Origin: a virus
Lineage: Duplodnaviria; Heunggongvirae; Uroviricota; Caudoviricetes
Length of the DNA stretch: 64,000 bases
IMG/VR virus record: IMGVR_UViG_3300044845_000732
Location: 1-64,000 of that record
Direction: 5' to 3' (one strand)
The position numbers and the translations under genes are program-made. The notes below the pieces were generated by a model. That model saw nothing but the letters and a program-made list of their open reading frames with translations. It made no database searches and had not been told where the DNA came from. Position 1 is the first letter of the stretch, and every line of letters starts with the position of its first letter. Shown here in pieces: positions 11,232 to 52,144 of the stretch.

Positions 11232-13115
11232 TTATTTACGGATAATCTTATTAGATTCTATTCCCGTACCTTTTTTAAGAGTAACGATGTAAGTCCCTGA
11301 AGGAAGGTGACCAACATTTGTACTATATCTGTGTTCTCCTGAATTTAAATCAGTACGAACAATTGTTTTAATTTCTCTACCACCCAAATCATATAAAGAC
11401 AACCAAACATTACCTTCTTTTTCTACTGTAAATTTGACTGTGATTTCATTATCAGTTGGATTTGGATATGTCACCATATATTCTAAATCGGTTGGTTTCA
11501 TAACTCTCATGATTTGAATAATTCCGTTTGTTGGTATTATTTTCAAATCTTTAGCAATTGAATTTCCTGAGAATTTTTTTGTAACATATAAAGGACTTAC
11601 ACCCCATTGACTTTGAATTTCTTTCGCTATGAATTGTAGCGTGAATGCTAATTCGTTGTCGTTTAATAATTTCGTATTTTTTGTTGGGTCATAACCACCC
11701 CACTCAACAATATTATCATTTGTGTTAACATAAGTTATCCATCCACTAACTTTATTCTCCGCTCTAACACCTGTAAAATCTAATAGATTACTATTGTAAT
11801 TTAGTGCTAGTTGTAAAGAACCTAATTGAATTCCATTTGTTTTTACAAGAACAGGAACCTCAACTCTACTATTTTCATTTACCGTTAAACTTGGATAGTT
11901 TAATTCGATTGTTTGTAATGTTGGGTTGTCATAAGTTGTTGTAACATCAATAATATTTGATGGTGCGTTTAATGGGTTTACGATTTCAATTGGGGTCATA
12001 CGAGCCATATTAAAACCAGTACCATTAGCGTCTCCTTTAACTAAGACATAGAAAGTAACTGTTGTTGTACCCGGTAAAATATTGTAAACAAGATTTGTTA
12101 CACCCGGAATTGTAGATTGTAAAGATGATGTTGCTCCATTAATAGAAGTGTATTCTGAATCTGAGAAGAATTTAACATCTTTAACCGTATTAGGCCAAGA
12201 ACTAAATCTTCCTGATACTCTACCAAACACACCATACACATCAGAAATTGATATGTTGTTGTCACCATTAACATCAGATGAATAGAAATCAAATCCTGTT
12301 GGAGTATCTTGACCTAAAACAAATCTGTTGATTTTTTGTGAGTCAGATGTAGAAATGATATTCGCAATTGTTAGTGATTCACCATCTACTCTAATACGAA
12401 CGTCATAACTTGTAACATCTAATGGTACATCCGTAAATGTGAAAACACCAGAGTTATTTGTTTGTGTTGTTGACGCTTGAACCCAAGTTGAAGATGTCAT
12501 TAATTTTTTCTCTAAAATAACCGGAATTAATTTTGACCCCGTTCCTGTTACGTTAGTGAATGTACCACTAAACGAAAATAGTTGAGGTAAAAACGCTCCA
12601 CCAAAGTTTTGTAAATTTAAAGTATAGTCAGAACCATTTTGTTTTGTTGCAGTTTGTGGGAATGTTTGAACACCACTAAATGTCATGGGTTGAACAGACG
12701 ACAAACTCGCAAAATTTGCTGAGTGTACTAAATTTAATTTTACAAATGACCCATCTGATAATTCAAAATTGGAATCATTACCTGTGTAAGTTAGAGTAAT
12801 CGTAACATATCCATTAGCAGGACTATCCTGAAATTGAATATATTGAGGAAACGATGTATTTGACGATACAACAGAAGACACTGATGTGAATGCTGCGGTA
12901 TCATAAAACACTCGAAACTGAGCAGCCGTAACTAACTCCGTAGTATTGTTAAAAAAACATAAACCTACTTCAGTATTACCAGCAGATGCCGGTGCTAATT
13001 GATAGGTTGCGTCTAATGTAACAAAAACTCCGGTAGTTGTCGGTGTCGGACAAATTTGGGAATAACCCAGTGAAGTCATTATAAGGAATGACAGCGCCAT
13101 AAAAAGTTTTTTCAT
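11232..13115 (-). CDS. secreted protein with a T9SS (Por) C-terminal sorting domain
   Basis: Signal peptide. C-terminus YPNPTDNEITV...LSLYDLGGREI...GTYIVTLKK...KIIRK matches the T9SS CTD consensus. Confidence 0.72.
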   Translation of the reverse strand: MKKLFMALSFLIMTSLGYSQICPTPTTTGVFVTLDATYQLAPASAGNTEVGLCFFNNTTELVTAAQFRVFYDTAAFTSVSSVVSSNTSFPQYIQFQDSPANGYVTITLTYTGNDSNFELSDGSFVKLNLVHSANFASLSSVQPMTFSGVQTFPQTATKQNGSDYTLNLQNFGGAFLPQLFSFSGTFTNVTGTGSKLIPVILEKKLMTSSTWVQASTTQTNNSGVFTFTDVPLDVTSYDVRIRVDGESLTIANIISTSDSQKINRFVLGQDTPTGFDFYSSDVNGDNNISISDVYGVFGRVSGRFSSWPNTVKDVKFFSDSEYTSINGATSSLQSTIPGVTNLVYNILPGTTTVTFYVLVKGDANGTGFNMARMTPIEIVNPLNAPSNIIDVTTTYDNPTLQTIELNYPSLTVNENSRVEVPVLVKTNGIQLGSLQLALNYNSNLLDFTGVRAENKVSGWITYVNTNDNIVEWGGYDPTKNTKLLNDNELAFTLQFIAKEIQSQWGVSPLYVTKKFSGNSIAKDLKIIPTNGIIQIMRVMKPTDLEYMVTYPNPTDNEITVKFTVEKEGNVWLSLYDLGGREIKTIVRTDLNSGEHRYSTNVGHLPSGTYIVTLKKGTGIESNKIIRK

Positions 13116-20867: not shown

Positions 20868-21073
20868 TTTTTTATGTTGTTAATGAGGTTATTGTACTCT
20901 TTTAATAAAGTTTGTTTATCATCCGATAAGTAATCTTTTTCGGATAACCAGTTAATTAATTCCTGTTTACCTAAATTATAAGATTCCACCATTGCTTGAA
21001 TGATGGAATCTTTATCCAAAAATGAATTATGGACAATATTTGTCTCGTAAATCGTTTCTAATTTTTGTTTCAT
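20864..21073 (-). CDS. small hypothetical protein
   Basis: 69-aa ORF overlapping its neighbours by 4 nt. Confidence 0.4.
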   Translation of the reverse strand: MKQKLETIYETNIVHNSFLDKDSIIQAMVESYNLGKQELINWLSEKDYLSDDKQTLLKEYNNLINNIKK

Positions 21074-22149
21074 GACTCACTTTCTTTTTGCCAAAATGGT
21101 TTACTATATGTTGGTCTTATCTTCTCCCAAATGTATGAAGAATAATCCCTTTTATCAAACATTTTAAATAATATTGGTTGAAGATATTGTTCTTGAGTCA
21201 TAACCCATTCAGCAAAAACTTTTCTGTCTGTAACCGGTTCTTTATCGTTGTACTTACCATACATATAGTAATCAAACGTTTTTCCAGCTCTTTCACTAAT
21301 TTGAAAATACCCATATCTCAAATCTTTAACCACATTTTTAACCCATTTGTCAAATTCATCCGGGACTTTATCCAAATATGTGTTTATGTCTTCCCCATTT
21401 TTTAATACTTCCCAAATGTTTATATTAGAAAATCCGGTTAAGATTCTGTGGAGACGAACGTATTCTTCCCCTTTTATCTTCATTCTAAACCCATTTCTGA
21501 ATCTTATGACAAAACCTTCTTGGTTTGACTCAATAATTGATTTAAGGGTCTTATAATCCTCCACTCCATCATATCGTTTAACAACTGGGAATCCCACAAC
21601 TTCACAAACTTGAATCAAAGAAGAATAATCAAATTCTTTCCCTGAAACATTACTAATCATAGTAAGTGCAACCAAACTTTCTTCGTCACCATAATCACAA
21701 ACAATACGATTCTCCGGATAGATAATTTCCACCAAAGTAGTATATCCTTTTGGAACTGGTTGTATATCATATTTTGATAACATTTCTTGACCTTTAATTG
21801 CTTGGTCTGAAGTGAATGAACCTTTACTTGCAAAAATCCATTTACCTTGGTACCAAAACAATATACCTAACGAGCCATCCATTTTTTCAAATACCTCAAA
21901 AGTTTCATTTGGGATTTCACTTGGGTCGTGTTCTTCCATGTTGAAAAACTTACCAAATGGTTTTGCAAGAACATTACCATCATTATCTAATACAAGACCT
22001 CGACAATTTCTGGTTATTGTATCCCACAGACCTTCATATTGAACTTTTCTTGAGTAGTTGTAAATCGCGATTGGAAGAGTTGGATGAGAGTTTTTCTCAA
22101 TCAAACCTTCACTAACGTATCTGTTTATTATTTCTATATCAATTTTCAT
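21070..22149 (-). CDS. RNA ligase (T4 Rnl-like nucleotidyltransferase)
   Basis: KMDGSLG lysine-adenylation motif (KxDG). Start set at MKIDIEII, with TAtcTTTG 4 nt upstream (22154-22161). Confidence 0.65.
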   Translation of the reverse strand: MKIDIEIINRYVSEGLIEKNSHPTLPIAIYNYSRKVQYEGLWDTITRNCRGLVLDNDGNVLAKPFGKFFNMEEHDPSEIPNETFEVFEKMDGSLGILFWYQGKWIFASKGSFTSDQAIKGQEMLSKYDIQPVPKGYTTLVEIIYPENRIVCDYGDEESLVALTMISNVSGKEFDYSSLIQVCEVVGFPVVKRYDGVEDYKTLKSIIESNQEGFVIRFRNGFRMKIKGEEYVRLHRILTGFSNINIWEVLKNGEDINTYLDKVPDEFDKWVKNVVKDLRYGYFQISERAGKTFDYYMYGKYNDKEPVTDRKVFAEWVMTQEQYLQPILFKMFDKRDYSSYIWEKIRPTYSKPFWQKESES

Positions 22150-22165
22150 AATGCAAAGATAAAAA

Positions 22166-22196
22166 AAAATCCTCAATAAATGAGGATTTTTTAAAT
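22166..22196 (-). terminator. rho-independent terminator
   Basis: Hairpin AATCCTCA-ataa-TGAGGATT flanked by A/T runs, downstream of the SPFH gene. Confidence 0.55.
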
Positions 22197-23599: not shown

Positions 23600-24262
23600 T
23601 TATTTTCTTTTTTTTCCGTCTTCGGTTTCAATCTCATCCGTGTGGTGGTCAAATAACATATCTGACACAATATCACGTTTATCCATAATTCTTATGATAT
23701 CGTCCATATCATATACTCCAAAAGTTGGGTGGCCATCCATACCAACATCCATTTTCTTACCTTTACCAAATCTTAAGTTTGTTGGCAAGTGAACGTGTCC
23801 GTGAAGGTGAATAACCCCTCTGTTTAGGTTTTCCCAAGATGCAATTGGGTAGTGGAATAGTTCAAATGTTTTGAATTTGTATGACATAGTTGTTGAACGA
23901 GTAACGCTTGCAAATAGTTCCTGACACTCACCTCGGTTATTTTGAATGTGGTGGTCGTGATTACCTAATATAAGGTGAACTTCTTTACACACGATTCTAT
24001 CTCGGAACTTTTGGATGTTTTCAAACCCGCCAAAAGACCAGTCACCCAAGTGAATTAATACATCATCTTCACCAACAACACTATTGATTCCACTAACAAT
24101 AGATTCGTTCATTTGTTCTATTGTTTTGAAATCTCTTGTTTGGTCTATTGGAATACTACCATCCGGTAATCTCCAATTTGTCACCCCACGGCAAATGTTT
24201 TTATGTCCGTAATGTGTATCGGAAGTAATAAAAACTTTTCTATCTTTATCTATTTTAATCAT
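23600..24262 (-). CDS. calcineurin-like metallophosphoesterase
   Basis: Motifs SDTHYGH, GDWSFGG, GNHDHH and GHVH. Confidence 0.7.
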   Translation of the reverse strand: MIKIDKDRKVFITSDTHYGHKNICRGVTNWRLPDGSIPIDQTRDFKTIEQMNESIVSGINSVVGEDDVLIHLGDWSFGGFENIQKFRDRIVCKEVHLILGNHDHHIQNNRGECQELFASVTRSTTMSYKFKTFELFHYPIASWENLNRGVIHLHGHVHLPTNLRFGKGKKMDVGMDGHPTFGVYDMDDIIRIMDKRDIVSDMLFDHHTDEIETEDGKKRK

Positions 24263-35017: not shown

Positions 35018-35764
35018 TTATTTTCTTTTAAGAATTTCTTTTTCATAATAATCGTCAAATCCAACCATCATATCTGACATTGATTGATTTTTCTCCACAC
35101 CAACAATTTTATCAATTAGACCAAATTGTAATGCTTCATCAGAATTGAACCATTTATCATTTCTTGATGATTCTAACATTTCTTCAAATGTCTTACCACA
35201 ATTCTCTGCCAATATTTTGAATAATAAATAATTGTATTTTTCGGCCTCAAGTTGATTAATTCTTGTGTCTTGAACATTACCTTGTGTTCCGTGAGAAACC
35301 ATGTGTGTCATTACTTTAGAAAATATTAATGAAGACCTTTTACCTTTAGCTCCCGAAGAAAGTAATACGGAACCCATTGACGCACACATACCAATATTTG
35401 TGGTTGCTACATCGGCATTAATAAAGTTCATAGTGTCTCTAATACCTAATCCACTTAAAACACTCCCACCCGGAGTTTGTAGATATAAATTAATATCTTT
35501 TTTCTTATCCAAGTTGTCTAAGAAAATAAGTTGTGATTGGATGATATCACCCATTCTGTCATCAACCGGACCTGAAGCCCATAATATTCTATCCATCATT
35601 AAACGAGAGAAAATATCCATTTGGGTTACTCTCATTTCTCTTTCTTCCAAAATGTATGGAGTCATTGAATTTTGAATGTGGTTGTTGAAGTTGTGTAAAT
35701 CCAAAGATGGTTTACCTAAATGTTTTGTGTAATAACTTTGAAATTCTTGTCCTACGTTCATCAT
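35018..35764 (-). CDS. clpP: ClpP-family serine protease subunit
   Basis: ClpP core with catalytic Ser (GMCASMGS) and His (MTHMVSHG), plus an N-terminal extension. TAtcTTTG at 35780-35787. Confidence 0.72.
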   Translation of the reverse strand: MMNVGQEFQSYYTKHLGKPSLDLHNFNNHIQNSMTPYILEEREMRVTQMDIFSRLMMDRILWASGPVDDRMGDIIQSQLIFLDNLDKKKDINLYLQTPGGSVLSGLGIRDTMNFINADVATTNIGMCASMGSVLLSSGAKGKRSSLIFSKVMTHMVSHGTQGNVQDTRINQLEAEKYNYLLFKILAENCGKTFEEMLESSRNDKWFNSDEALQFGLIDKIVGVEKNQSMSDMMVGFDDYYEKEILKRK

Positions 35765-35799: not shown

Positions 35800-36438
35800 T
35801 TAAAGTGCCAAAATATCATCAATAATTTCCTCACTTGATAAGTTGGAGTATAATCTCGGATGTTGATATGACCAAAATGTTTTCCAATTTCCGTACCAAA
35901 TAACCCCTTCTTGTCTTGGGTCAATTGTTCTCCAATCATTACTATTTTTAGGAAATCTACCGATATTATATGACTTATAATAATCTATACCATCTACTTG
36001 ATAGTATGATGGATACTTGATATTTATATCGTCAAAATTGGTATTTAAAAAAATTTTACATCCATGTATTTTTTGATATTCCTCCACCCGAGACACCCAC
36101 AATAGACATTCATCATAATTGTTAGTCTTCAAATTAAACAATACTTGTTTTCCGTAATCGTTAAAACGGTGAGTAAATATTTTTTTTAAACCAAAATTGG
36201 GGATATATTTTGAAACAGAGATTTCAAAATCAAAATAAAATTCGATTGGGATATGAAACTCACCACCATTACCGGATATTCTACGACCTTCAACGTAAAG
36301 AGATTGGTCATCATTTTTTAGGTATTCCCTCAACTCAACGTAATAAAGTTCATCGGGACCTGATATTCGTAAATAAGGTGATGGTGTAAAATTCATCACA
36401 ATTTTTTCTTCGTTAAGAGAAATAAACATAATCTTCAA
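35800..36438 (-). CDS. hypothetical protein
   Basis: 212-aa ORF in the same operon as the carbamoyltransferases. Confidence 0.5.
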   Translation of the reverse strand: MKIMFISLNEEKIVMNFTPSPYLRISGPDELYYVELREYLKNDDQSLYVEGRRISGNGGEFHIPIEFYFDFEISVSKYIPNFGLKKIFTHRFNDYGKQVLFNLKTNNYDECLLWVSRVEEYQKIHGCKIFLNTNFDDINIKYPSYYQVDGIDYYKSYNIGRFPKNSNDWRTIDPRQEGVIWYGNWKTFWSYQHPRLYSNLSSEEIIDDILAL

Positions 36439-38002
36439 TTATTAGTTTATCGATAACCCCAAGTTTTAATGACTCAAATGCTTGCTCAGGGTTTTCAATG
36501 ATTGGTTGATTGTGAGAATTAAATGAAGTGTTCAATAATAATGGTATTCCTGATAACATATAATATTCATTTAATATTTCCCAAAATTTAGGTGTTTTAG
36601 ACCTTTTAACTATTTGTGGTCTGGCCGTTTTATCTGACTTTTGTATAACTGCAGGTATCTTATCAATCCACTCATCTTTTGTATTGTAACATAATGTCAT
36701 AAACTCAGATGTGTATTTTGACTTTGATGGTGTAAAAATATTGTCAAAGGATTCTTCTAATATAATTGGGGCAAATGGCATTGTATCATATCGATTTAAT
36801 CTTTGATTTAGTAGTCTATGTGTTGAGATTTCAGTTGGTCTAACTAAAATACTTCGAGCCCCTAAAGACCTTGGACCAAATTCGGAACCATTTTGAAACC
36901 ATCCAACGATTCCTCCTTGATTGATATAATTTGCGATATCTTTCGGATTATATGGTTCTCTCTTAAAACTATAATCTTTTGAGATTTCCTGTATTTCATC
37001 ATTATTGTATGACTTTCCAAAATAAACATTAGTTAGTTCAATTGGTTCTGTAATCTCACCCAATTTTACTGCTTTATAGATACAAGCTCCTAATGACAAC
37101 CCTTCATCACCCATTGGTGGGTAAATATAAATTTCGTCAACCCATTCTAATTCGTTGAGTTTTTGATTTAATTTAACATTGGCAAATAGTCCTCCGGATA
37201 AGCATAATTGCTTATATTCAGGATATAAATTATGTAAGTCGTCAATAAATTTTAGGAATAGGTCTTCTGTTCGTTTTTGTAAATTAAATGAATAGATTTC
37301 CATTTTTTCTTGAGTATCGAAATATCCATTGAATTTCATCATGTCACCTAAAAACATAGTTTTACTTGATGACCCGGATGGGTAAAATCTAAAATCCTTA
37401 TAATTAATTACGGTGGACAACATATTATAAATTGTCTCATCGTAATGACCATTTGGACCCATACCCATTAATTTACCTTCATCTTTACACATTTTCCATA
37501 TTCCCTCACCATGTTCGTCATATCCTCTCATTGAGGATGTACTGAATCCCCAAACATGAGAAATACTTCCAAATGACGCCAATGGATGACTTTGGATTAA
37601 AGTCATTTTTCCATTATCACACAGATAAACTTTCATTACGGTACTTTCCCCTCCACCATCGTATGTGATAGTAATTGATTTACCTTTCATTCCACTGGTG
37701 TAGTAGGCACCATATGCGTGTGCGGTATGGTGACTAACTTTTTCATAATTATTGTTGCTGATTTTACGGGCAAATGCGTCCGGTGTTGGATTTGCAAAGA
37801 TTCGGTAATTGGCATCTGTTATTTTTAGACCTGTATATTTTTCCGCCTCAATACATGATAATTCACAATTAATATCGTAATTATCACCTGATTTTATTCG
37901 GGTTAGTCTCTCTTCCTCAATACAAAATGTTATTTTACCGTCTCTAATTAATGCAATAGATGGACTATGTGACCCGGTAAAGAATCCATAAATTGAACTC
38001 AT
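36413..38002 (-). CDS. carbamoyltransferase (NodU/CmcH family)
   Basis: N-terminal SIALIRDGKI..EERLTRIK; motif VSHHTAHAYGAYY; Kae1/HypF-like fold. Confidence 0.7.
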   Translation of the reverse strand: MSSIYGFFTGSHSPSIALIRDGKITFCIEEERLTRIKSGDNYDINCELSCIEAEKYTGLKITDANYRIFANPTPDAFARKISNNNYEKVSHHTAHAYGAYYTSGMKGKSITITYDGGGESTVMKVYLCDNGKMTLIQSHPLASFGSISHVWGFSTSSMRGYDEHGEGIWKMCKDEGKLMGMGPNGHYDETIYNMLSTVINYKDFRFYPSGSSSKTMFLGDMMKFNGYFDTQEKMEIYSFNLQKRTEDLFLKFIDDLHNLYPEYKQLCLSGGLFANVKLNQKLNELEWVDEIYIYPPMGDEGLSLGACIYKAVKLGEITEPIELTNVYFGKSYNNDEIQEISKDYSFKREPYNPKDIANYINQGGIVGWFQNGSEFGPRSLGARSILVRPTEISTHRLLNQRLNRYDTMPFAPIILEESFDNIFTPSKSKYTSEFMTLCYNTKDEWIDKIPAVIQKSDKTARPQIVKRSKTPKFWEILNEYYMLSGIPLLLNTSFNSHNQPIIENPEQAFESLKLGVIDKLIIEDYVYFS

Positions 38003-38005
38003 AAA

Positions 38006-39670
38006 TTATCTACTTATAATAAAATTATCAATTACTAATATGTCAAGTTTGTTTGAAATGAATGTTTTAATTGCCTCTTCAGGAGTTTCAACAATTGGTT
38101 CGTGTGGACCATTAAAACTTGTGTTAAGTAAAACAGGAACACCGGTTTCATCATAAAACGAATTGATTAGTGAATAAAATTTTGGGTTATTCTCTTTGGT
38201 AACCGATTGATGTCTTGCAGAATAATCAATATGAGTAACTGCAGGTATTTTATCTCTCCATTCTTCTTTAACTGACGTGGTCACCAACATATGAGGAGAA
38301 TAAACATCTGATTCGAAGACTTCAGATTGATGTTCAAATAAAACTGCCGGTGCAAAGGGACGATACCATTCTCTATGTTTGATATCCCCATTAATATGAC
38401 CTGACATCCATTTTTGAATTGGTGATGCTAATATTGAACGATTACCTAATGCCCTTGGACCAATTTCTGACCCTCCCTGAAACCAACCAATCACTCTATT
38501 TTGGGTTAACCAATGGGTTACATCTTTAATTAATTCACTTTCATCAACATACTCAATAATATTTAAATCAGGGTGGTTATTAATTGCCGTGATAATTTCT
38601 TGTTTTGAATATGTTTTACCAAAATATGGGGACATTGGTTCAGATGAAACAATATCCGTAAGTTGTTGATATGCATACCAAGCGCATCCTAATGGAATCC
38701 CACTATCATCACTCGGAGCTAAAAAATAAGAATTGTCATATAATCCTGAATTTAGAATAACTTCATTTGAATTACAATTTAAAAATGACCCACCAGCAAC
38801 ACATACATTCGAAGATTTTGTTAAATTTTTTGCGATTTTAGCTAAAATTAAAGAAGACCTTTCTTGTTCCCTTTGGTAAATTCCCGCAACACATGCTCTT
38901 GAGAAAAAATCAGATTTCCAAGTTACTTTTGGGTAGATTGTATTATTTGGTATGAATATATCGTCGTCTAATTCTTTTACATATTGTGGAGCTTCATCAA
39001 CAACTGTTTTGTCAGCATATGACGCCAACCCCATTAATTTACCTGCTGGCCAAGTGTTTTCATTTGGTTCGTAGATTAATTGTAATGAACCTGTTGAATA
39101 AACAGTTCCAACAGAAACACCTTCATTGGTGTCAATAGGAACAGGATATTTTATCCATTTTTTATAAACTTCATTATATCCGTTTTTTGTAAAATGAAAT
39201 AATGAAATTCCTTCGGCCCAATCTTCTTCAGGGTCTAAATCAGTTCTATCAACATCATACCATTCATGTAATTTGTTTTTGTAGCTTAAAATACTTCCGG
39301 ATGCGTCCGCAACAATTATTGCTGATTCTTCGAAACCTGAACTAAAAAACGTTGAATATGCGTGGGCCAAATGGTGAGGTAAAAATTTAAGTTTTTTCCT
39401 TTTTAAATCGATATATTTGTTGAAAAACTGAGAATCAACATCATCGGTTATTTCAGTGGTACTATAAACAAATAAGTCTATATCCCTATGAGTAATACTC
39501 AAATAATTTAAACAATAGTTTATGGATTCAAAAGGAATTAATCCCCCTTGATATGCACCATCGTGTTTTATCCTAGATAATCTTTCTTGGGTGATACCCA
39601 CCACAACTTTTCCATTTTCTATGATAACCGCACCTTTATCGTGTCCTACCGAAAATCCTAATACTCTCAT
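38006..39670 (-). CDS. carbamoyltransferase (NodU/CmcH family), tandem paralog
   Basis: GFSVGHDKGAVII..QERLSRIKHD; motif PHHLAHAYSTFFSS. Confidence 0.7.
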   Translation of the reverse strand: MRVLGFSVGHDKGAVIIENGKVVVGITQERLSRIKHDGAYQGGLIPFESINYCLNYLSITHRDIDLFVYSTTEITDDVDSQFFNKYIDLKRKKLKFLPHHLAHAYSTFFSSGFEESAIIVADASGSILSYKNKLHEWYDVDRTDLDPEEDWAEGISLFHFTKNGYNEVYKKWIKYPVPIDTNEGVSVGTVYSTGSLQLIYEPNENTWPAGKLMGLASYADKTVVDEAPQYVKELDDDIFIPNNTIYPKVTWKSDFFSRACVAGIYQREQERSSLILAKIAKNLTKSSNVCVAGGSFLNCNSNEVILNSGLYDNSYFLAPSDDSGIPLGCAWYAYQQLTDIVSSEPMSPYFGKTYSKQEIITAINNHPDLNIIEYVDESELIKDVTHWLTQNRVIGWFQGGSEIGPRALGNRSILASPIQKWMSGHINGDIKHREWYRPFAPAVLFEHQSEVFESDVYSPHMLVTTSVKEEWRDKIPAVTHIDYSARHQSVTKENNPKFYSLINSFYDETGVPVLLNTSFNGPHEPIVETPEEAIKTFISNKLDILVIDNFIISR

Positions 39671-42456: not shown

Positions 42457-42482
42457 CCAAAATACTCATAAAATATAATAAG

Positions 42483-42518
42483 AATCCTGAACTCAAAAAG
42501 TTCAGGATTTTTTTTTTG
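42483..42518 (+). terminator. rho-independent terminator
   Basis: Hairpin ATCCTGAAC-tcaaaaa-GTTCAGGAT followed by T10. Confidence 0.65.
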
Positions 42519-42575: not shown

Positions 42576-42597
42576 AAGTTATTTGAAATATTGGTAA
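42576..42597 (+). repeat. 22-nt leader element AAGTTATTTGAAATATTGGTAA (copy 1)
   Basis: Identical 22-mer at 45531-45552; both copies lie 7-8 nt upstream of the first tRNA of a subcluster. Confidence 0.6.
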
Positions 42598-42604
42598 ACA
42601 AAAT

Positions 42605-42688
42605 GGAAGGCGGCCGAATGGACGAGGAGCTTGTCTTGAAAACAAGTAGCGGGTAACACCGTTGTGGGTTCGATTCCCATGTCTTCCT
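42605..42688 (+). tRNA. tRNA-Ser(TGA), class II
   Basis: Hand-folded. Acceptor GGAAGGC/GTCTTCC; anticodon arm CTTGT-CTTGAAA-ACAAG; long variable arm; T-arm GTGGG-TTCGATT-CCCAT. D-arm atypical. Confidence 0.55.
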
Positions 42689-42694
42689 CAATTT

Positions 42695-42766
42695 TGCCCC
42701 TTCGTATATCGGTTAGTACACATGGTTTTGGTCCATGCGGGGGGAGTTCGATTCTCTCAGGGGTAA
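42695..42766 (+). tRNA. tRNA-Gln(TTG)
   Basis: U1:A72; anticodon arm CATGG-TTTTGGT-CCATG; T-loop TTCGATT. Confidence 0.65.
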
Positions 42767-42773
42767 CAAAAAT

Positions 42774-42845
42774 GGTGATATGGCCGAGTGGCTTAGGCAC
42801 AGGTCTGCAAAATCTGTTACGTGGGTTCGAATCCTACTATCACCT
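42774..42845 (+). tRNA. tRNA-Cys(GCA)
   Basis: Acceptor GGTGATA/TATCACC; anticodon loop CTGCAAA; discriminator U; T-loop TTCGAAT. Confidence 0.65.
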
Positions 42846-42850
42846 CAATC

Positions 42851-42918
42851 ACCGAGTGGTCCGGGACCAAAGACGGCTCATATCTGACTTTAGAATGGCT
42901 CAACACCATTACTCGGTA
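42851..42918 (+). ncRNA. degenerate tRNA-like element (CAT anticodon-like loop, non-canonical T-loop CTCAACA)
   Basis: Perfect 7-bp terminal stem ACCGAGT/ACTCGGT; T-arm-like AATGG-CTCAACA-CCATT; loop CTCATAT; irregular D-arm. Confidence 0.25.
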
Positions 42919-42924
42919 CAAATT

Positions 42925-42995
42925 ACCTTGTTGGCGTAACGGAAGCGTATTTGTTTTACATGCAAAGGGAAGTGGTTCGATTCCACTACGAGGTA
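42925..42995 (+). tRNA. tRNA-Val(TAC)
   Basis: Acceptor ACCTTGT/ACGAGGT; anticodon arm TTTGT-TTTACAT-GCAAA; T-arm AGTGG-TTCGATT-CCACT. Confidence 0.6.
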
Positions 42996-43001
42996 CAAAT
43001 T

Positions 43002-43082
43002 GGGGACGGAAAGTCGTTCGGATACGGCAGCGAGACTGTAAATCTCGTCCTTTTGGGAGTGGTTCGAGTCCACCCGGCCCCA
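43002..43082 (+). tRNA. tRNA-Tyr(GTA), class II
   Basis: Anticodon arm CGAGA-CTGTAAA-TCTCG; variable-arm hairpin TCC-tttt-GGA; T-loop TTCGAGT; one acceptor mismatch. Confidence 0.5.
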
Positions 43083-43226
43083 CTATGATAATGGTTTTCT
43101 CTATCTATCGGATGTCGACAATCCAAGATAGAATCAAGAATTCTGCACCCCCTGCCGAGGCCTCGTAAAACTACGATTAAGCAGTTAAGATTGGAGCGAG
43201 ATGGGTACTCCAACATTATCATTATT

Positions 43227-43299
43227 GGGTCTTTTGTATAGCTGGTGCGTACGCTAGTCTGAAGAACTAGAGGAGTAGGTTCGATTCCTACAGGACCCA
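43227..43299 (+). tRNA. tRNA-Phe(GAA)
   Basis: Acceptor GGGTCTT/AGGACCC; anticodon arm CTAGT-CTGAAGA-ACTAG; T-arm GTAGG-TTCGATT-CCTAC. Confidence 0.65.
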
Positions 43300-43306
43300 C
43301 AAAAAT

Positions 43307-43378
43307 TCTTCTGTCGTATAAAGGTTATTACGGTTGACTGTTAATCAATTTATGGTGGTTCGAGTCCACCCGGAAGAG
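43307..43378 (+). tRNA. tRNA-Asn(GTT)
   Basis: D-stem CGTA/TACG; anticodon arm GTTGA-CTGTTAA-TCAAT; T-arm GGTGG-TTCGAGT-CCACC. Confidence 0.6.
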
Positions 43379-43455
43379 CGGAGTCCCGAAATAACGGGAA
43401 ACCCCCACTCCCATATGGCAGCCGGTCCATTAACCCGGTGAAGTGGGGTAAAATT

Positions 43456-43527
43456 GCTCTTGTAGTAGAATGGTTAGCACACATTCCTGATAAGAATGAA
43501 AAGAAGGTTCAATTCCTTCCAAGAGTA
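43456..43527 (+). tRNA. tRNA-Ile(GAT)
   Basis: Acceptor GCTCTTG/CAAGAGT; anticodon arm CATTC-CTGATAA-GAATG; T-arm GAAGG-TTCAATT-CCTTC. Confidence 0.55.
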
Positions 43528-43635
43528 CAAAAACCTTAAATGTGGTACCCGATACTGACAGCTCTTTAGGAGTGATGGGTGTGAAAGCGGGTTGAAAAGG
43601 GTACATCTCAAACCCACATTGATAGGTTTAAATAT

Positions 43636-43708
43636 GGTGGCTATAGTGTAACGGTTAACACGATAGATTGTGGTTCTGTAAATGGGAGTTCGATTCTCCT
43701 TAGTCACC
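43636..43708 (+). tRNA. tRNA-His(GTG) with G-1
   Basis: Extra 5' G pairs with C73; anticodon loop TTGTGGT; T-arm GGGAG-TTCGATT-CTCCT. Confidence 0.65.
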
Positions 43709-43715
43709 CTAAATT

Positions 43716-43820
43716 GGTCAGGTGGCGGAATGGTAGACGATAAAATAGGTGAATGGGGAATAGTGTTAATCGCTCCTATTTGAATTCCCGGCAATACAGG
43801 TTCAAGTCCTGTCCTGACCA
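43716..43820 (+). ncRNA. 105-nt tRNA-like RNA (oversized; anticodon not assignable)
   Basis: Perfect acceptor GGTCAGG/CCTGACC; T-arm ACAGG-TTCAAGT-CCTGT; Leu/Ser-like D-loop AATGGTAGA. About 25 nt surplus between the D and T arms. Confidence 0.3.
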
Positions 43821-43826
43821 CAAATT

Positions 43827-43900
43827 GTCTCCATAGTTTAATTGGAAAAATACTTGAATACGAATCAAGAGACGTGGGAGTTCGACTCTTCCTGGGGACA
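43827..43900 (+). tRNA. tRNA-Arg(ACG)
   Basis: D-stem GTTT/AAAT; anticodon arm CTTGA-ATACGAA-TCAAG; T-loop TTCGACT. Confidence 0.6.
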
Positions 43901-44103
43901 CAAAATGGAGAGTAAAACAATCAGGGTATTGTCACCTCCTGCTAAGAGAGTGGTTCTGTAAAAGGGATGGATTTCGAGTATTCTGCTCTCCGCAGAAAAA
44001 AAATGAATATGGAAAAAGAAGAAAAATTTTGGTATGAAGTAGGGTTTTTCATAACTAAAAAAGGTATTAAAGTAACTCTGTATAGAGAAGTAAAATAAAA
44101 ATT

Positions 44104-44176
44104 CGGGTAGTAGGAAAGTTGGTAATCCGCTACATTTGGGATGTAGAGAACGCTGGTTCGAGTCCAGTCTACCCGA
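44104..44176 (+). tRNA. tRNA-Pro(TGG)
   Basis: C1:G72 acceptor CGGGTAG/CTACCCG; anticodon arm CTACA-TTTGGGA-TGTAG; T-loop TTCGAGT. Confidence 0.65.
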
Positions 44177-44361
44177 CAAATGTGGCTCACAGAGTTTGAT
44201 TATTAAGTTCAAATTAGTTATAATTTGAGCCAAATAACAGAACAAAATGAGCTCAAACGCCCTCTAGGCTTTAAAGTGAAGCACGATACTTTTAATATCG
44301 GGAAGAAGGAGCATTACCTTCAGGGGGTACAAAAAAATGTTTAACTAATAAATCAAAAGTC

Positions 44362-44868
44362 GTGAGTAAGTACGCAAAAACATTGGTTTTGGATTCAAGT
44401 TATATGCCAAGGTCTATCATAAACACTGAAAGGGCTTTTGTAATAACTTATAAGGGTAACGCGAGTGTTGTTGCCGAACATCCGGAATCATTTAATCTAA
44501 TCAATCCTGAGTTAGATATAAAGAAACCATCAATTATCAGGGTTTTCAAATATGTGAATCAACCGATTCATAAAGTTCCTTTAAGTAGAGAGAATGTTTA
44601 TCGTAGAGATAATTACTCCTGTGTTTATTGTGGGTGTGAGAATCGTAAGACATTGACATTAGACCACGTAATACCTCAGTCTAAAGGAGGTAAAGATGCT
44701 TGGGACAACTTGGTAACCGCTTGTAAGAAATGTAATAGTGAGAAGTCAAATTTAACGTTGGAAGAATATGGTAAGGAAATCCCTCAACCAAGACGACCAC
44801 ATTATTTGATGATGATTAAACAAGTTCATTATGTTCCAAAAGAGTGGGAAGATTATTTGTTTTTCTAA
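44362..44868 (+). CDS. HNH endonuclease inside the tRNA island
   Basis: CVYCGCENRKTLTLDHVIPQSKGG...WDNLVTACKKCNSEK (HNH with zinc-finger cysteines). Confidence 0.72.
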   Translation: MSKYAKTLVLDSSYMPRSIINTERAFVITYKGNASVVAEHPESFNLINPELDIKKPSIIRVFKYVNQPIHKVPLSRENVYRRDNYSCVYCGCENRKTLTLDHVIPQSKGGKDAWDNLVTACKKCNSEKSNLTLEEYGKEIPQPRRPHYLMMIKQVHYVPKEWEDYLFF

Positions 44869-44872
44869 AAAT

Positions 44873-44943
44873 GCGTGATACAGACGGGATGTCGTTCAGG
44901 TCTCCAAAACCTCGAAGGGTAGGTTTGACCCCTACATCACGCG
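44873..44943 (+). tRNA. tRNA-Trp(CCA)-like with a non-canonical T-loop (TTTGACC)
   Basis: Acceptor GCGTGAT/ATCACGC; anticodon loop CTCCAAA; T-stem GTAGG/CCTAC; short D-loop; C-C mismatch closes the anticodon stem. Confidence 0.35.
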
Positions 44944-45015
44944 CAGAAGACGGAGAGTGAGTCAAGGGTAATTCCGTTATGGTTATCCCTCGAGGGTCTC
45001 TCCTGAAGAAATATG

Positions 45016-45088
45016 GATTTTGAAGCACAATTGGACGTGCGACCGGCGTAAGGCCGGGAGGATATAGGTTCGAATCCTATCAATATCC
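45016..45088 (+). pseudogene. degenerate tRNA (class I, anticodon-loop CGTAAGG = UAA with G33)
   Basis: Good D-arm GCAC/GTGC and T-arm ATAGG-TTCGAAT-CCTAT. Acceptor has a T-T mismatch, and U33 is replaced by G. Confidence 0.3.
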
Positions 45089-45280
45089 CAAATTAAAAAT
45101 AAATCTTACCAATACTTGACACTTTTATAAAAAGGACTATATTTATTAGAAATTATAATAACACAGAAAATGCAAACTTTAAATACATTATTACTTACAA
45201 TAGGCGCGGAGGGTAGAGATACAACTCGGTCGGAGATGGTATGATGTATTGTTAAGTAATTACTAATATAATAAAATCCA

Positions 45281-45312
45281 TCTCCAAAAGAGGTGGATTT
45301 TTTTTTTATACT
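45281..45312 (+). terminator. rho-independent terminator closing the first tRNA transcription unit
   Basis: Hairpin ATCCATCTC-caaaa-GAGGTGGAT followed by T10. Confidence 0.65.
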
Positions 45313-45530: not shown

Positions 45531-45552
45531 AAGTTATTTGAAATATTGGTAA
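45531..45552 (+). repeat. 22-nt leader element AAGTTATTTGAAATATTGGTAA (copy 2)
   Basis: Identical to 42576-42597. Confidence 0.6.
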
Positions 45553-45709: not shown

Positions 45710-45809
45710 CAAAAAAACAGAAAGACAGAATACGGGAAGTCACTACCCGGGAAACACGGTTCTTTCTCATTCAATTGTTATAGGATTGTCACCTTTGAAT
45801 TGAAATTTT

Positions 45810-45881: not shown

Positions 45882-46049
45882 CCATAAATAATACATCGCG
45901 AGGGGGAGGTATAGTATCTCATCGGTCTCATAAGCCGACCAAAGCAGGAGCGTTACCTGCCCTACGCTACAAAAGTGTCTCGGTCCGCTCTGACGAAAGT
46001 CAACGACGAGGTCCCGGTAGACAGAACGCGTCTGATTCTACCCAAATCT

Positions 46050-46208: not shown

Positions 46209-46281
46209 GCCCCGGTGGTGGAACGGTAGACACGCTTGTTTTAGGCACAAGATTTTGAGGGTTCGAGTCCCTCTTGGGGTA
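46209..46281 (+). tRNA. class-I tRNA with anticodon TAG (Leu box), anomalous
   Basis: Perfect anticodon arm CTTGT-TTTAGGC-ACAAG (G37) but a short variable loop; acceptor has three G-U pairs. Confidence 0.45.
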
Positions 46282-46436
46282 CAACACATTATCATAACTC
46301 GGTGTGATACACCGCCCACTACCTCCTTAAACAACGTGGGAACTGCGGTTCTCCCAATGTGGCCGAAGTGATGATGTTAAAATAGTAGTTTAAGAGACAG
46401 AGTTGACTTCTACTTTAAAAAAATACTCTGCGACAG

Positions 46437-47341: not shown

Positions 47342-47374
47342 TTAACCCTCAATGAAAATTGGGGGTTTTTTATT
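47342..47374 (+). terminator. rho-independent terminator closing the second tRNA transcription unit
   Basis: Hairpin AACCCTCAA-tgaaaa-TTGGGGGTT followed by T6. Confidence 0.6.
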
Positions 47375-51577: not shown

Positions 51578-52144
51578 TTATTTAAGGTATTCTAACAATT
51601 TTTCTTTAATACCTGATTGTTTAATTCCCTCATTTTCTCTTGGTGTGTGAACAAAATTGGTTAATCCCCAATCTCGTTCAAATCCGTATGAGTCTGTTTT
51701 ACCTAATGATAGGTCATCAATACAAACCCAATGTGTTATTTCAGGATGGTCGGTCAGATATTGACTAACTTCAAAACATCTTTGTTGTAAGTGCATTGTT
51801 CCTCGTGACCATTGAACTTCAGGTAAATCACAATCAAAATATTGTTTGGTGACACCTATTGGTTTTTTGATAATCCCTTCTGAAAGGTAATAATCACCAA
51901 GTTCTTCTAAATTGGCATATAATCTCCAATCAGAGGAAACAACGATTTCTGTACCGGTTTCTTCCAATACTTGATTTAAAACCTTAACCGCCTTTTTATC
52001 GAAGTAATCAAAACGATATTTTACCTCAACATCCGGGTCATTCATCACCAAAGATATATTGTCTTTTTTTCGTTTTTTTACACGACTTCCCCAATTATTT
52101 GCTAAACAGATAACACCATCATTATCTAGAAATATCACTTTCAT
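51578..52144 (-). CDS. HAD-like hydrolase (nucleotidase/phosphatase)
   Basis: Motif I FLDNDGVI; C-terminal CIDD. Confidence 0.45.
   Translation of the reverse strand: MKVIFLDNDGVICLANNWGSRVKKRKKDNISLVMNDPDVEVKYRFDYFDKKAVKVLNQVLEETGTEIVVSSDWRLYANLEELGDYYLSEGIIKKPIGVTKQYFDCDLPEVQWSRGTMHLQQRCFEVSQYLTDHPEITHWVCIDDLSLGKTDSYGFERDWGLTNFVHTPRENEGIKQSGIKEKLLEYLK

Follow-up and report, generated by a model that had tools for sequence, protein, structure and literature searches.

Rule-breaking tRNA-like RNAs in the tRNA island of a Caudoviricetes virus, compared with related metagenomic loci

Positions 1 to 64,000 of the IMG/VR virus record IMGVR_UViG_3300044845_000732 (Caudoviricetes), a stretch called the window here, contain an island of transfer RNA (tRNA) genes. 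Four tRNA-like elements, E1 to E4, are interleaved with the ordinary tRNA genes of this island, and each of them resembles described systems in part. One such system is the tRNA-like domain of transfer-messenger RNA (tmRNA). Its ends pair as an acceptor stem beside a T-arm, its anticodon arm is replaced, and the synthetase that charges it reads no anticodon. E2 and E4 share this topology, and a sister clade of E4 also has G3.U70 and A73. Unlike tmRNA, the elements here are 71-160 nucleotides (nt) long, keep a full D-arm with a canonical elbow, and occur in many copies with different inserts per genome. No tag frame or pseudoknot ring is evident in them, the tmRNA detector of ARAGORN finds nothing in the window, and the E4 of the window itself does not have G3.U70.

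Ponchon and Dardel reportedly engineered a tRNA scaffold for recombinant RNA, which retains the acceptor, D, and T arms for processing and stabilization by the cell and puts a structured RNA of choice where the anticodon arm would be. The family to which E2 belongs has an identical design. However, the scaffold is a laboratory construct, whereas the family is natural, is built on a tRNA-Leu frame, is found in hundreds of phage contigs, and has cargos that appear to be under selection. The tRNA cluster of phage T4 contains stable non-tRNA RNAs (species 1 and 2, or bands C and D) that are released from tRNA precursors. These are also small stable RNAs of uncharacterised function among phage tRNA genes, but no constant tRNA chassis with variable inserts is known for them, and they show no sequence relation to the elements here (the phage database gave ordinary tRNA matches). 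The tRNA-Other of B. cereus and the cell-wall tRNA-Gly of S. aureus are tRNA-shaped genes in tRNA operons that have non-decoding functions. Such bacterial pseudo-tRNAs and non-proteinogenic tRNAs likewise have altered T-loops or cores, but they keep the anticodon arm that the phage-encoded E2 and E4 lack.

Phage tRNAs can also act against tRNA-targeting defense, as the tRNAs of T5 reportedly do against PARIS and retron effectors. Phage tRNAs deviate from host tRNAs, and this has been read as escape from anticodon nucleases, with the changes in the anticodon loop (van den Berg et al., 2023; PMC10264068). The window also encodes deviant tRNAs, here together with Rnl1-type repair genes. However, E1 and E3 have conventional anticodon loops and deviate instead in the D/T elbow, the size of the D-arm, and the stem lengths. 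Mitochondrial tRNAs can have reduced D-arms. There are also tRNAs with anticodon stems of 4 base pairs (bp) (PMC13092985) and cloverleaves of the 8/4 and 9/3 types (PMC5389517). E1 resembles these reduced tRNAs in its miniature D-arm, and E3 in a 27.43 mismatch that leaves four Watson-Crick pairs in its anticodon stem. The combination found in E1 (no nucleotides 8-9, a D hairpin of 4 bp and 3 nt, an 8-bp anticodon stem, and a 2-nt variable region) was not found described in the literature searched. The bacterial Y RNA YrlA is a non-coding RNA that includes a tRNA mimic with a T-arm, a D-arm, and an acceptor-like stem, has Ro as its partner, and is sometimes phage-encoded (PMC4201824). In YrlA the Ro-binding stem is made of the RNA ends, and the tRNA-like part lies inside the molecule. 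The ends of the elements here are instead the acceptor stem, and no TROVE/Ro gene was found among the approximately 40 open reading frames (ORFs) of the window that were scanned.

Conservation of E1 to E4

The four elements are as follows.
42851-42918, + strand: E1, a candidate non-canonical tRNA(CAU)
43716-43820, + strand: E2, an RNA of 105 nt on a tRNA-Leu chassis
44873-44943, + strand: E3, a probable tRNA-Trp(CCA)
45016-45088, + strand: E4, a tRNA-shaped RNA without an anticodon arm

The preferred reading, with a probability of roughly 60%, is that these are four real RNA genes kept for their structure and that they fall into two classes, rebuilt decoders and tRNA top halves that serve as handles for non-decoding RNAs. 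Comparison with related phage contigs demonstrates, as far as sequence can tell, that all four are conserved, structured, strand-specific RNA genes. The related loci, referred to by L numbers, were gathered from IMG/VR through flanking proteins and DNA patterns and number several hundred. Each element recurs among them with compensatory changes. A 7-bp acceptor, a continuous 5-bp T-stem, and a 7-nt T-loop are present in four of four, with one U.U mismatch in E4, and these stems covary in three of the families (E1, E3, and E4). Pairing is maintained, in that standard pairs make up 92-96% of cells, many changes are double-sided, and the covariation was reached by 0 of 500 shuffles, controls that ignore kinship among the sequences. 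The D/T elbow G18G19:U55C56 is canonical in E2 and E4, E1 keeps G18:U55 and G19:C56, and E3 has a compensated A19:U56. The loops of E1 and E3 are canonical anticodon loops (7 nt, U33, purine at 37), and no such loop is present in E2 or E4.

The coordinates that a preliminary description gave for the four elements are correct, all four are on the + strand, and all of the sequence features that it listed are present. It had also seen each of them followed by a discriminator and CAAA. This holds for E1, E2, and E4, but E3 is followed by G-CAGAAG. Programs for tRNA detection respond to them unevenly. ARAGORN calls none of the four in its default mode, while its relaxed (-ps80) and mitochondrial modes return three, with the calls Met(cat) for E1, Trp(cca) for E3, and 'Leu(taa)' for E4. 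Relaxed settings add three divergent tRNAs that were absent from the earlier account, Ser(GCT) and Lys(TTT) inside the interval from E1 to E4 and a CAT gene just outside it. The relaxed mode also produces false hits, about 2.6 in every 6 kb of shuffled sequence, and therefore detection by this mode alone proves little. The Rfam tRNA model (RF00005) has a gathering threshold of 29 bits, and three of the four elements fall below it. E4 alone passes, with 40 bits. E2 scores 27.3 bits, with only its acceptor, D, and T arms aligned, E3 scores 22.4 bits (tRNA-Sec only), and E1 has no Rfam tRNA hit at E<=10.

E1, E3, and divergent neighbors as candidate decoders

The CAT loop and the T-loop CTCAACA reported for E1 are both there. 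Its acceptor (ACCGAGT/ACTCGGT) is paired at seven of seven positions and is directly abutted by the D hairpin, GGTC-CGG-GACC, without nucleotides 8-9. The anticodon stem contains an A.A mismatch, the anticodon loop is CTCATAT, and the T-arm is AATGG-CTCAACA-CCATT. Twelve distinct homologs from at least 14 IMG/VR contigs align nearly without gaps. Standard pairs make up 95.8% of cells in this alignment, and each of the four helices has a double-sided compensatory pair within the 12 sequences. The covariation score was reached by none of 500 shuffles, and slid controls drop to 28-48% paired. The loop YTCATAT (U33, CAU, A37) is invariant, the D hairpin has the form GGTC-NNN-GACC, and the A.A mismatch is found in 12 of 12. 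The G.U and U.G variants are valid solely as + strand RNA.

The D-loops and T-loops of the E1 family come in matched pairs, CGG with CTCAACA or TTCAACA, AAG with AGCRTTA, AGGT with CTCGATA, and TTGGG with TTCGATC. Because the two loops change together, the tiny D-loop of E1 appears to still contact the T-loop. The Gln-Val interval of three related loci (L019, L037, and L081) contains an ordinary cloverleaf CAT tRNA where the window has E1, and a less derived relative of E1 with the same CCGAGT acceptor is present in L008 and L009. It is concluded from these comparisons that E1 is a conserved and structurally novel putative tRNA(CAU). Met, fMet, and Ile2 (lysidine) are its candidate roles, and the window has three CAT genes in total.

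E3 is best read as the tRNA-Trp of the island. The CCA loop (CTCCAAA), the T-loop TTTGACC, and the 5-nt D-loop GGGAT that had been reported for it were all confirmed, and it has a C27.C43 mismatch and the discriminator G73. The contacts that shape the L are retained as well. From its closest relatives, L029:13558 and L058:8164, E3 is separated by compensatory changes in every stem, at five positions in the acceptor and also in the D, anticodon, and T stems. The three share the 5-nt D-loop, C27.C43 (3 of 3), and G73. Where E3 combines T-loop TTTGACC with D-loop GGGAT, the relatives combine TTCRATT with AAGGT, which corresponds to a change of tertiary pair 19:56 from G:C to A:U. When all Trp tRNAs were aligned with MAFFT, the D-arms of different subfamilies fell out of register, and the pairs were scored by script instead. 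Among the 20 tRNAs that default ARAGORN finds in the island, there is none for Trp and none for Lys. Without E3 the island would have no Trp tRNA, and with E3 and the divergent Lys gene it would cover all 20 amino acids. Recoding of UGA to Trp was considered as a cause of the 4-bp anticodon stem of E3 and was rejected. The standard genetic code suits the window, with an ORF coverage of 84%, and the longest ORF becomes no longer when TGA is read as sense.

Three further divergent genes, each called by relaxed ARAGORN, belong with E1 and E3.
43907-43993, + strand: divergent tRNA-Ser(GCT) with a weak T-stem, missed by default ARAGORN
44259-44330, + strand: divergent tRNA-Lys(TTT) with D-loop AAG (no GG) and T-loop AGCATTA
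45898-45968, + strand: third tRNA-like gene with a CAT anticodon, T-loop AGCGTTA, and an A4.A69 acceptor mismatch

The Ser(GCT) gene is found in five related loci, among which its anticodon stem has changed in a compensatory manner (CCUCC..GGAGA-type, U-A to G-C). The Lys and CAT genes share an unusual elbow. GG is present in the D-loop of 0 of 9 tRNA frames with T-loop AGCRTTA, where the D-loop is always AAG, against 344 of 347 frames with a canonical T-loop; the nine are distinct class-I frames (Lys, Ala, Asp, and Glu) that come from several isoacceptor families and are phylogenetically non-independent. A looser scan found AGCRTTA in two CAT families as well, and in Lys genes of two lineages. 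The loci concerned are Lys 44259 and CAT 45898 of the window, L012, L014, L082, L015:2774, and L037:9893, with Ala genes in L011, L012, and L029, Asp genes in L037 and L012, and a Glu gene in L142. The alternative and the canonical elbow interchange among orthologous Lys, Ala, Asp, Glu, and CAT tRNAs. Since AGCRTTA always co-occurs with D-loop AAG, the unusual T-loops appear to be an alternative architecture and not decay. The loop sequences suggest that 18:55 changes from G:U to A:G and 54:58 from U:A to A:U.

Under the preferred reading, E1 and E3 together with the Lys, Ser(GCT), and second CAT genes would be decoding tRNAs with rebuilt cores. They would be excised by RNase P and RNase Z and would receive CCA, which none of them encodes. 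They could then be charged via anticodon and discriminator determinants and used in translation. This class would supply Trp and Lys, which are missing from the canonical genes of the island, as well as three CAU species. The rebuilt elbows and cores probably alter recognition by tRNA-binding enzymes of the host or the phage.

E2, E4, and the RNAs without an anticodon loop

As had been described, E2 is 105 nt long and has a perfect acceptor and T-arm. Its surplus is not the approximately 25 nt first estimated, since a 56-nt insert takes the place of the entire anticodon and variable region. The acceptor GGTCAGG/CCTGACC is fully paired, the T-arm is ACAGG-TTCAAGT-CCTGT, the D-arm is of the Leu type, and position 73 is A. 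The insert has a predicted stem, AAATAGG/CCTATTT, and may also form a pseudoknot, GGGAAT/ATTCCC. E2 has orthologs in L257 and L266, whose inserts are near-identical to its own and which, like E2, are followed by tRNA-Arg(acg).

The two ends of E2 recur widely with entirely different middles. This phage-only chassis family was defined by a 5' part, RGTCAGG-TG-GCGGAAT(T)GGTAGACGC, a 3' part, ACAGG-TTCRANN-CCTGT-CCTGACY-A, and a variable structured middle without an anticodon loop. E2 fits this definition with one 5' difference and three 3' differences. The exact 3' motif, ACAGGTTCRANNCCTGTCCTGAC, is found in more than 120 IMG/VR stretches among the matches listed, and one locus (L099) has eight copies in 3.4 kb. 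In 185,579 species genomes it is present on only 29 contigs, all from metagenome-assembled genomes (MAGs) and mostly from freshwater Bacteroidota bins. A match of the chassis to a host tRNA-Leu or to a bacterial attachment site (attB) was rejected on these 29 hits. Among GenBank phages, the chassis query returned no family member, only T-arm matches in Enterococcus phages.

A total of 172 distinct chassis RNAs of 68-270 nt were recovered from the gathered loci, and their inserts form 149 similarity clusters. Among the 160 whose acceptors are nearest to the consensus, the median length is 106 nt. An anticodon stem-loop follows the D-arm in 3 of these 160, against 269 of 323 ordinary tRNAs (first 86 related loci and the window). 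Chassis RNAs often occur several per genome, within tRNA operons, and many of them score above the Rfam tRNA threshold. Homologous inserts show compensatory changes, CCUAAGU/ACUUAGG to CCUAAAU/GUUUAGG and GUGU/ACAC to GCGU/ACGC. One insert type is present in two chassis, L027:5529 and L051:2468, whose acceptor and T stems differ in a compensatory manner. Because the stems vary in this way around one insert type, the chassis frame appears to be an RNA structure and not merely a DNA repeat.

The chassis can be traced to tRNA-Leu. Its positions 5-26 are 100% identical to E. coli tRNA-Leu genes, and it has A14, A15, G18G19, U48 (a conserved U just before the T-stem), and A73. The leucyl-tRNA synthetase (LeuRS) of E. 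coli uses A73, A14, A15:U48, and G18G19 without reading the anticodon. The sequence features of a LeuRS substrate are thus present in the chassis by E. coli rules, which may differ from those of the host, and the E2 of the window combines them with a G10.A25 mismatch.

Several searches were directed at the inserts. In an Rfam scan of ten loci rich in chassis RNAs, every hit was a tRNA except for one freshwater-1 RNA, and no motif lay inside the inserts. The freshwater-1 RNA (RF02979) is at L106:4124-4186, in a related phage tRNA island that has chassis RNAs, and scores 70.1 bits against a threshold of 72. The orphan motif thereby acquires a genomic setting. Hits from scans with short exact patterns of the E2 insert were rejected as mostly chance, with a chassis context in 2 of 52 hits. 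The k-mer WAWGGK is a weak signal, present in 44% of inserts and 21% of shuffles, often 5-20 nt after the D-arm. Examples are AATGGG at 43746-43751 of the window, L012:7378, and L051:886.

E4 has canonical D- and T-arms, and a 5-bp hairpin with a 5-nt loop, GTAAG, replaces its anticodon arm. The acceptor mismatch reported earlier, T4.T69 (U4.U69 in the RNA), is real, but the reported G33 exists only if a 7-nt loop is assumed. The acceptor has U3-A70 and the discriminator is C73. About 20 relatives were compared, some from the clade of the window and 10 distinct sequences from a sister clade. The D-arm and T-arm hardly vary in the window clade, and the hairpin is fully paired in every member. 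The loop varies and has 4-6 nt (GTAAG, AATAG, ATAAG, AATGTG, AAACG, or GACG), the would-be 32-38 pair is C-G, U-A, U.G, or G-C, and one to three pyrimidine mismatches are found at positions 4-6. In the sister clade pairing of the hairpin is complete (100%), four of its five pairs have changed on both sides, the loop is ARAC, and G.U wobble variants are tolerated on the + strand only. G3.U70 (10 of 10) and A73 are invariant in this clade while pairs 4-69 and 6-67 covary. G3.U70 with A73 is the classical alanine identity set in E. coli, as in tmRNA, and the rules of the host may differ. The paired hairpins show that, by all comparative signs, E4 cannot decode, although it is the sole one of the four that Rfam would label a tRNA.

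Another small RNA lies exactly between E3 and E4.
44945-45013, + strand: structured RNA module of 69 nt

It is 86-97% identical in at least ten related loci, where it always directly follows the tRNA-Trp, and E4 in turn always comes after this RNA. Its inner stem is compensatory (UCAAGGG/CCCUCGA to CCAAGGG/CCCUUGG), and it matches no Rfam family. Because E4 abuts this RNA, an RNase P cut at the 5' end of E4 would also make the 3' end of the 69-nt RNA.

The comparison of anticodon regions shows E2 and E4 to be putative RNAs that do not decode. In the preferred reading they would form a second class of tRNA-shaped RNAs that read no codon, in which the acceptor/T top half and the D/T elbow are kept and the anticodon arm is replaced. 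The retained part is what RNase P and RNase Z recognize, as do the CCA-adding enzyme and those synthetases that do not read the anticodon. In E4 the replacement would be a capped 5-bp hairpin, and its 5' end would set the 3' end of the upstream 69-nt RNA. In E2 the constant tRNA-Leu-derived chassis would carry a 56-nt structured cargo, with more than 100 unrelated cargos across phages. Most likely, the tRNA frame is a handle for processing, stability, and possibly aminoacylation, and the cargo is the active part that would bind a protein or a ligand.

Alternative explanations and the setting in the phage

A number of points weigh against the preferred reading. All of the relatives are uncultivated metagenomic contigs. 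The geometry of E1, with no nucleotides 8-9, an 8-bp anticodon stem, and an invariant A.A, may not suit use on the ribosome. The thermodynamic z-scores for E1 to E4 range from -0.8 to -2.2, which is unremarkable and uninformative. The fold and the pseudoknot of the E2 insert are without covariation support, because there are just two orthologs and these are near-identical, and the E2 of the window has the G10.A25 mismatch. The near-invariance of the 3' half of the chassis is partly a matter of ascertainment, as the search pattern required that motif. No partner protein is evident beside the chassis RNAs, where the largest ORF cluster, which is terminase-like, is found at 14 of 120 loci. No antisense target for the E2 insert was found in the window, where the longest complementarity is 10 nt and below the shuffled median.

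The first rival to consider is that the elements are decoys or sponges for tRNA-targeting defense (PrrC, RloC, VapC-type toxins, or Cas13 collateral activity) or for other tRNA-binding factors, and that they protect the tRNA pool. The RNA-repair genes of the window imply such pressure.
21070-22176, - strand: T4 Rnl1-type RNA ligase
23600-24262, - strand: metallophosphoesterase (calcineurin-like)
51578-52144, - strand: protein with the HAD_SAK_2 'Swiss-army-knife RNA repair' domain
61480-62211, + strand: nucleotidyltransferase-domain protein, a weak assignment

This gene set is consistent with the repair of cleaved tRNAs and with a lineage that is under tRNA-cleavage pressure (compare PMC7824862 and PMC10264068). 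In addition, the diversity of inserts in the E2 family (149 clusters in 172 RNAs) resembles arms-race diversification, and phage tRNAs that evolve to evade anticodon nucleases are a published precedent (PMC10264068). However, E2 and E4 have no anticodon loop, while E1 and E3 have intact and invariant ones and so resemble substrates or users, and no defense or anti-defense gene is consistently adjacent. Characterized anticodon nucleases recognize and cleave the anticodon loop. Decoys are therefore an unlikely explanation, although a decoy role toward factors that bind the elbow or the acceptor is possible. The proposal of the preliminary description that these are decoys against host anticodon nucleases is thereby weakened. 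Its core intuition, that functional rule-breaking tRNA-like RNAs are tied to a tRNA arms race, was right, in a phage that encodes an Rnl1-type ligase and RNA-repair domains.

Less probable still, E2 and E4 could be aminoacylated RNAs that do not decode, charged by LeuRS on the E2 chassis and by alanyl-tRNA synthetase in the sister clade of E4. Such RNAs might donate the amino acid non-ribosomally, go into ribosomes that have stalled, or titrate the synthetase. In favor of this, the E2 chassis has the LeuRS identity set of the E. coli type, the sister clade of E4 keeps G3.U70 and A73 in 10 of 10 while adjacent pairs covary, and the topology is that of the tmRNA tRNA-like domain, with the ends as acceptor stem and the anticodon arm replaced. 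The E4 of the window, however, has U3-A70 and C73 and consequently no alanine identity. ARAGORN finds no tmRNA, and no SmpB-like or aminoacyl-transferase gene was identified in the window, nor a tag reading frame, for which no dedicated search was made.

It is very improbable that the four are decaying, functionless pseudogenes from duplications in a rapidly rearranging island, as the preliminary description had allowed. It is true that default ARAGORN misses four and Rfam three, that the stems have mismatches (A.A in E1, C.C in E3, U.U in E4, and G10.A25 in E2), and that the island is highly mosaic between relatives. Yet the 'defects' are themselves conserved (A.A in 12 of 12 for E1 and C27.C43 in 3 of 3 for E3) amid compensatory changes, and even tertiary pairs covary. 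The families recur in many distinct phage contigs, and E3 and the Lys gene fill the sole two missing amino-acid slots. Since the homologs in related phages show compensatory base changes, none of the four appears to be a pseudogene.

Similarly remote is the proposal that the E2 family consists of interrupted tRNA-Leu genes, from which an intron or a mobile insertion would be taken out to leave a normal decoder. The clear derivation of the chassis from tRNA-Leu and the RNA ligase that the phage encodes speak for this. ARAGORN in its intron mode calls E2 a Val(gac) tRNA with a 20-nt intron, a call that was rejected, because the 'intron' interrupts the anticodon, which moreover is not conserved (GGTGAAT becomes GGTAAATT in the orthologs of L257 and L266). 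The E2 insert has 56 nt and gives no Rfam intron or ribozyme hit, whereas the introns known from bacterial tRNAs are group I ribozymes that exceed 200 nt. There are no shared exon-like anticodon stem halves around the inserts, and an anticodon stem-loop is found in just the 3 of 160 chassis RNAs given above. To our knowledge no tRNA splicing endonuclease motifs are known from bacteria, and no search for them was made in this analysis. Unusual processing, another option raised earlier, finds no support in the case of E2, because none of the intron models fits.

Action of the conserved ends as DNA, as recombination or attachment sites or as homing-endonuclease targets, is scarcely tenable: an HNH gene is in the island, the islands are mosaic, the chassis ends are nearly identical between copies, and phage attachment sites often coincide with tRNA 3' halves, but all copies are in tRNA orientation, G.U wobble is tolerated on the + strand only, the acceptor and T stems covary with pairing kept (L051:2468 and L027:5529), many members are above the Rfam tRNA threshold, and the chassis is not a host attB, because a matching tRNA is essentially absent from bacterial genomes.

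The setting of the preferred reading's RNA genes is given by the following features.
42.6-47.3 kb, + strand: tRNA island, 20 tRNAs by default ARAGORN
42480-42512, 45273-45301, and 47344-47367, + strand: terminator-like hairpins, with none in between
42576-42597 and 45531-45552: repeated 22-nt leader AAGTTATTTGAAATATTGGTAA, before the first tRNA of each unit and conserved in related loci
42605-45301, + strand: tRNA transcription unit 1, with Ser(tga) as its first tRNA, E4 as its last element, and the intrinsic terminator 45273-45301 at its end
44362-44868, + strand: HNH endonuclease ORF within the tRNA island (Pfam HNH_5 and HNH, E = 1e-16)
11232-13115, - strand: protein with a type IX secretion system (T9SS) sorting domain (Por_Secre_tail)
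35018-35764, - strand: ClpP-like protease
36413-39670, - strand: two carbamoyltransferases
57091-59106, - strand: ClpB-like AAA+ chaperone

The terminators and the repeated leader indicate that the island consists of two transcription units, and AAGTTATTTGAAATATTGGTAA may be a leader or a processing signal. E1 to E4 are all inside unit 1, on the + strand and in tRNA orientation, with no internal terminator. The window has a G+C content of about 31%, is AT-rich, and seems to come from a very large phage genome. Contigs of 309-434 kb are among its relatives in IMG/VR. The T9SS sorting domain points to a putative host among the Bacteroidota. The GenBank phage collection (INPHARED) contains no relative of the island and gave only generic, ordinary tRNA matches.

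Related phages differ strongly in the order of the island modules, and the island is highly mosaic. In relatives (with copies in L001 and L082) the 3' end of the HNH gene occurs up to three times. These copies and the module order suggest that the island is shuffled by the homing endonuclease. Several spacers between tRNAs (43084-43226, 43380-43455, 43529-43636, 44178-44258, 45711-45809, and 46283-46382) are also conserved modules, with 87-98% identity in relatives. They are sometimes better conserved than the tRNAs, and several are closed by a terminal helix. Their fold z-scores include -2.8 (43529-43636), -2.3 (46283-46382), and -5.1 (44178-44258). The conserved spacers are probably further small RNAs that are freed by tRNA processing. 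The tRNA-Leu(tag) at 46209-46282 has 74 nt and a variable loop of 4-5 nt, without the usual long extra arm of bacterial tRNA-Leu. The Leu tRNAs of relatives (L012:16795 and L022:15589, with Leu(taa) in relatives) are also short.

Neither the chassis family, nor the anticodon-less family, nor the alternative elbow was found described in the literature searched, the coverage of which was incomplete. There is a substantial chance that the chassis family merits treatment as its own class. At somewhat less than even odds, freshwater Bacteroidota phages have a natural tRNA-scaffold system with well over 100 conserved cargos, an anticodon-less family with an alanine-identity clade, and an alternative elbow, which would jointly be an undescribed tRNA-derived layer in the conflict between phage and host.

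If the preferred reading is true, phage tRNA islands would be toolkits of tRNA-derived RNAs and would go beyond codon-usage patches. The rebuilt decoders would reveal swappable parts of the universal elbow, at 18:55, 19:56, and 54:58. The default tools miss a probable real tRNA-Trp, tRNA-Lys, and tRNA(CAU), and Rfam passes only E4, which is a non-decoder. Because of this, the tRNA repertoires of phages and their "missing" amino acids are likely to be miscounted. The E2 family would supply over 100 candidates for new structured RNA domains whose boundaries are already set, and every one of them is open to testing. The top half of tRNA would then be a natural handle, the same trick as the "tRNA scaffold" of biotechnologists.

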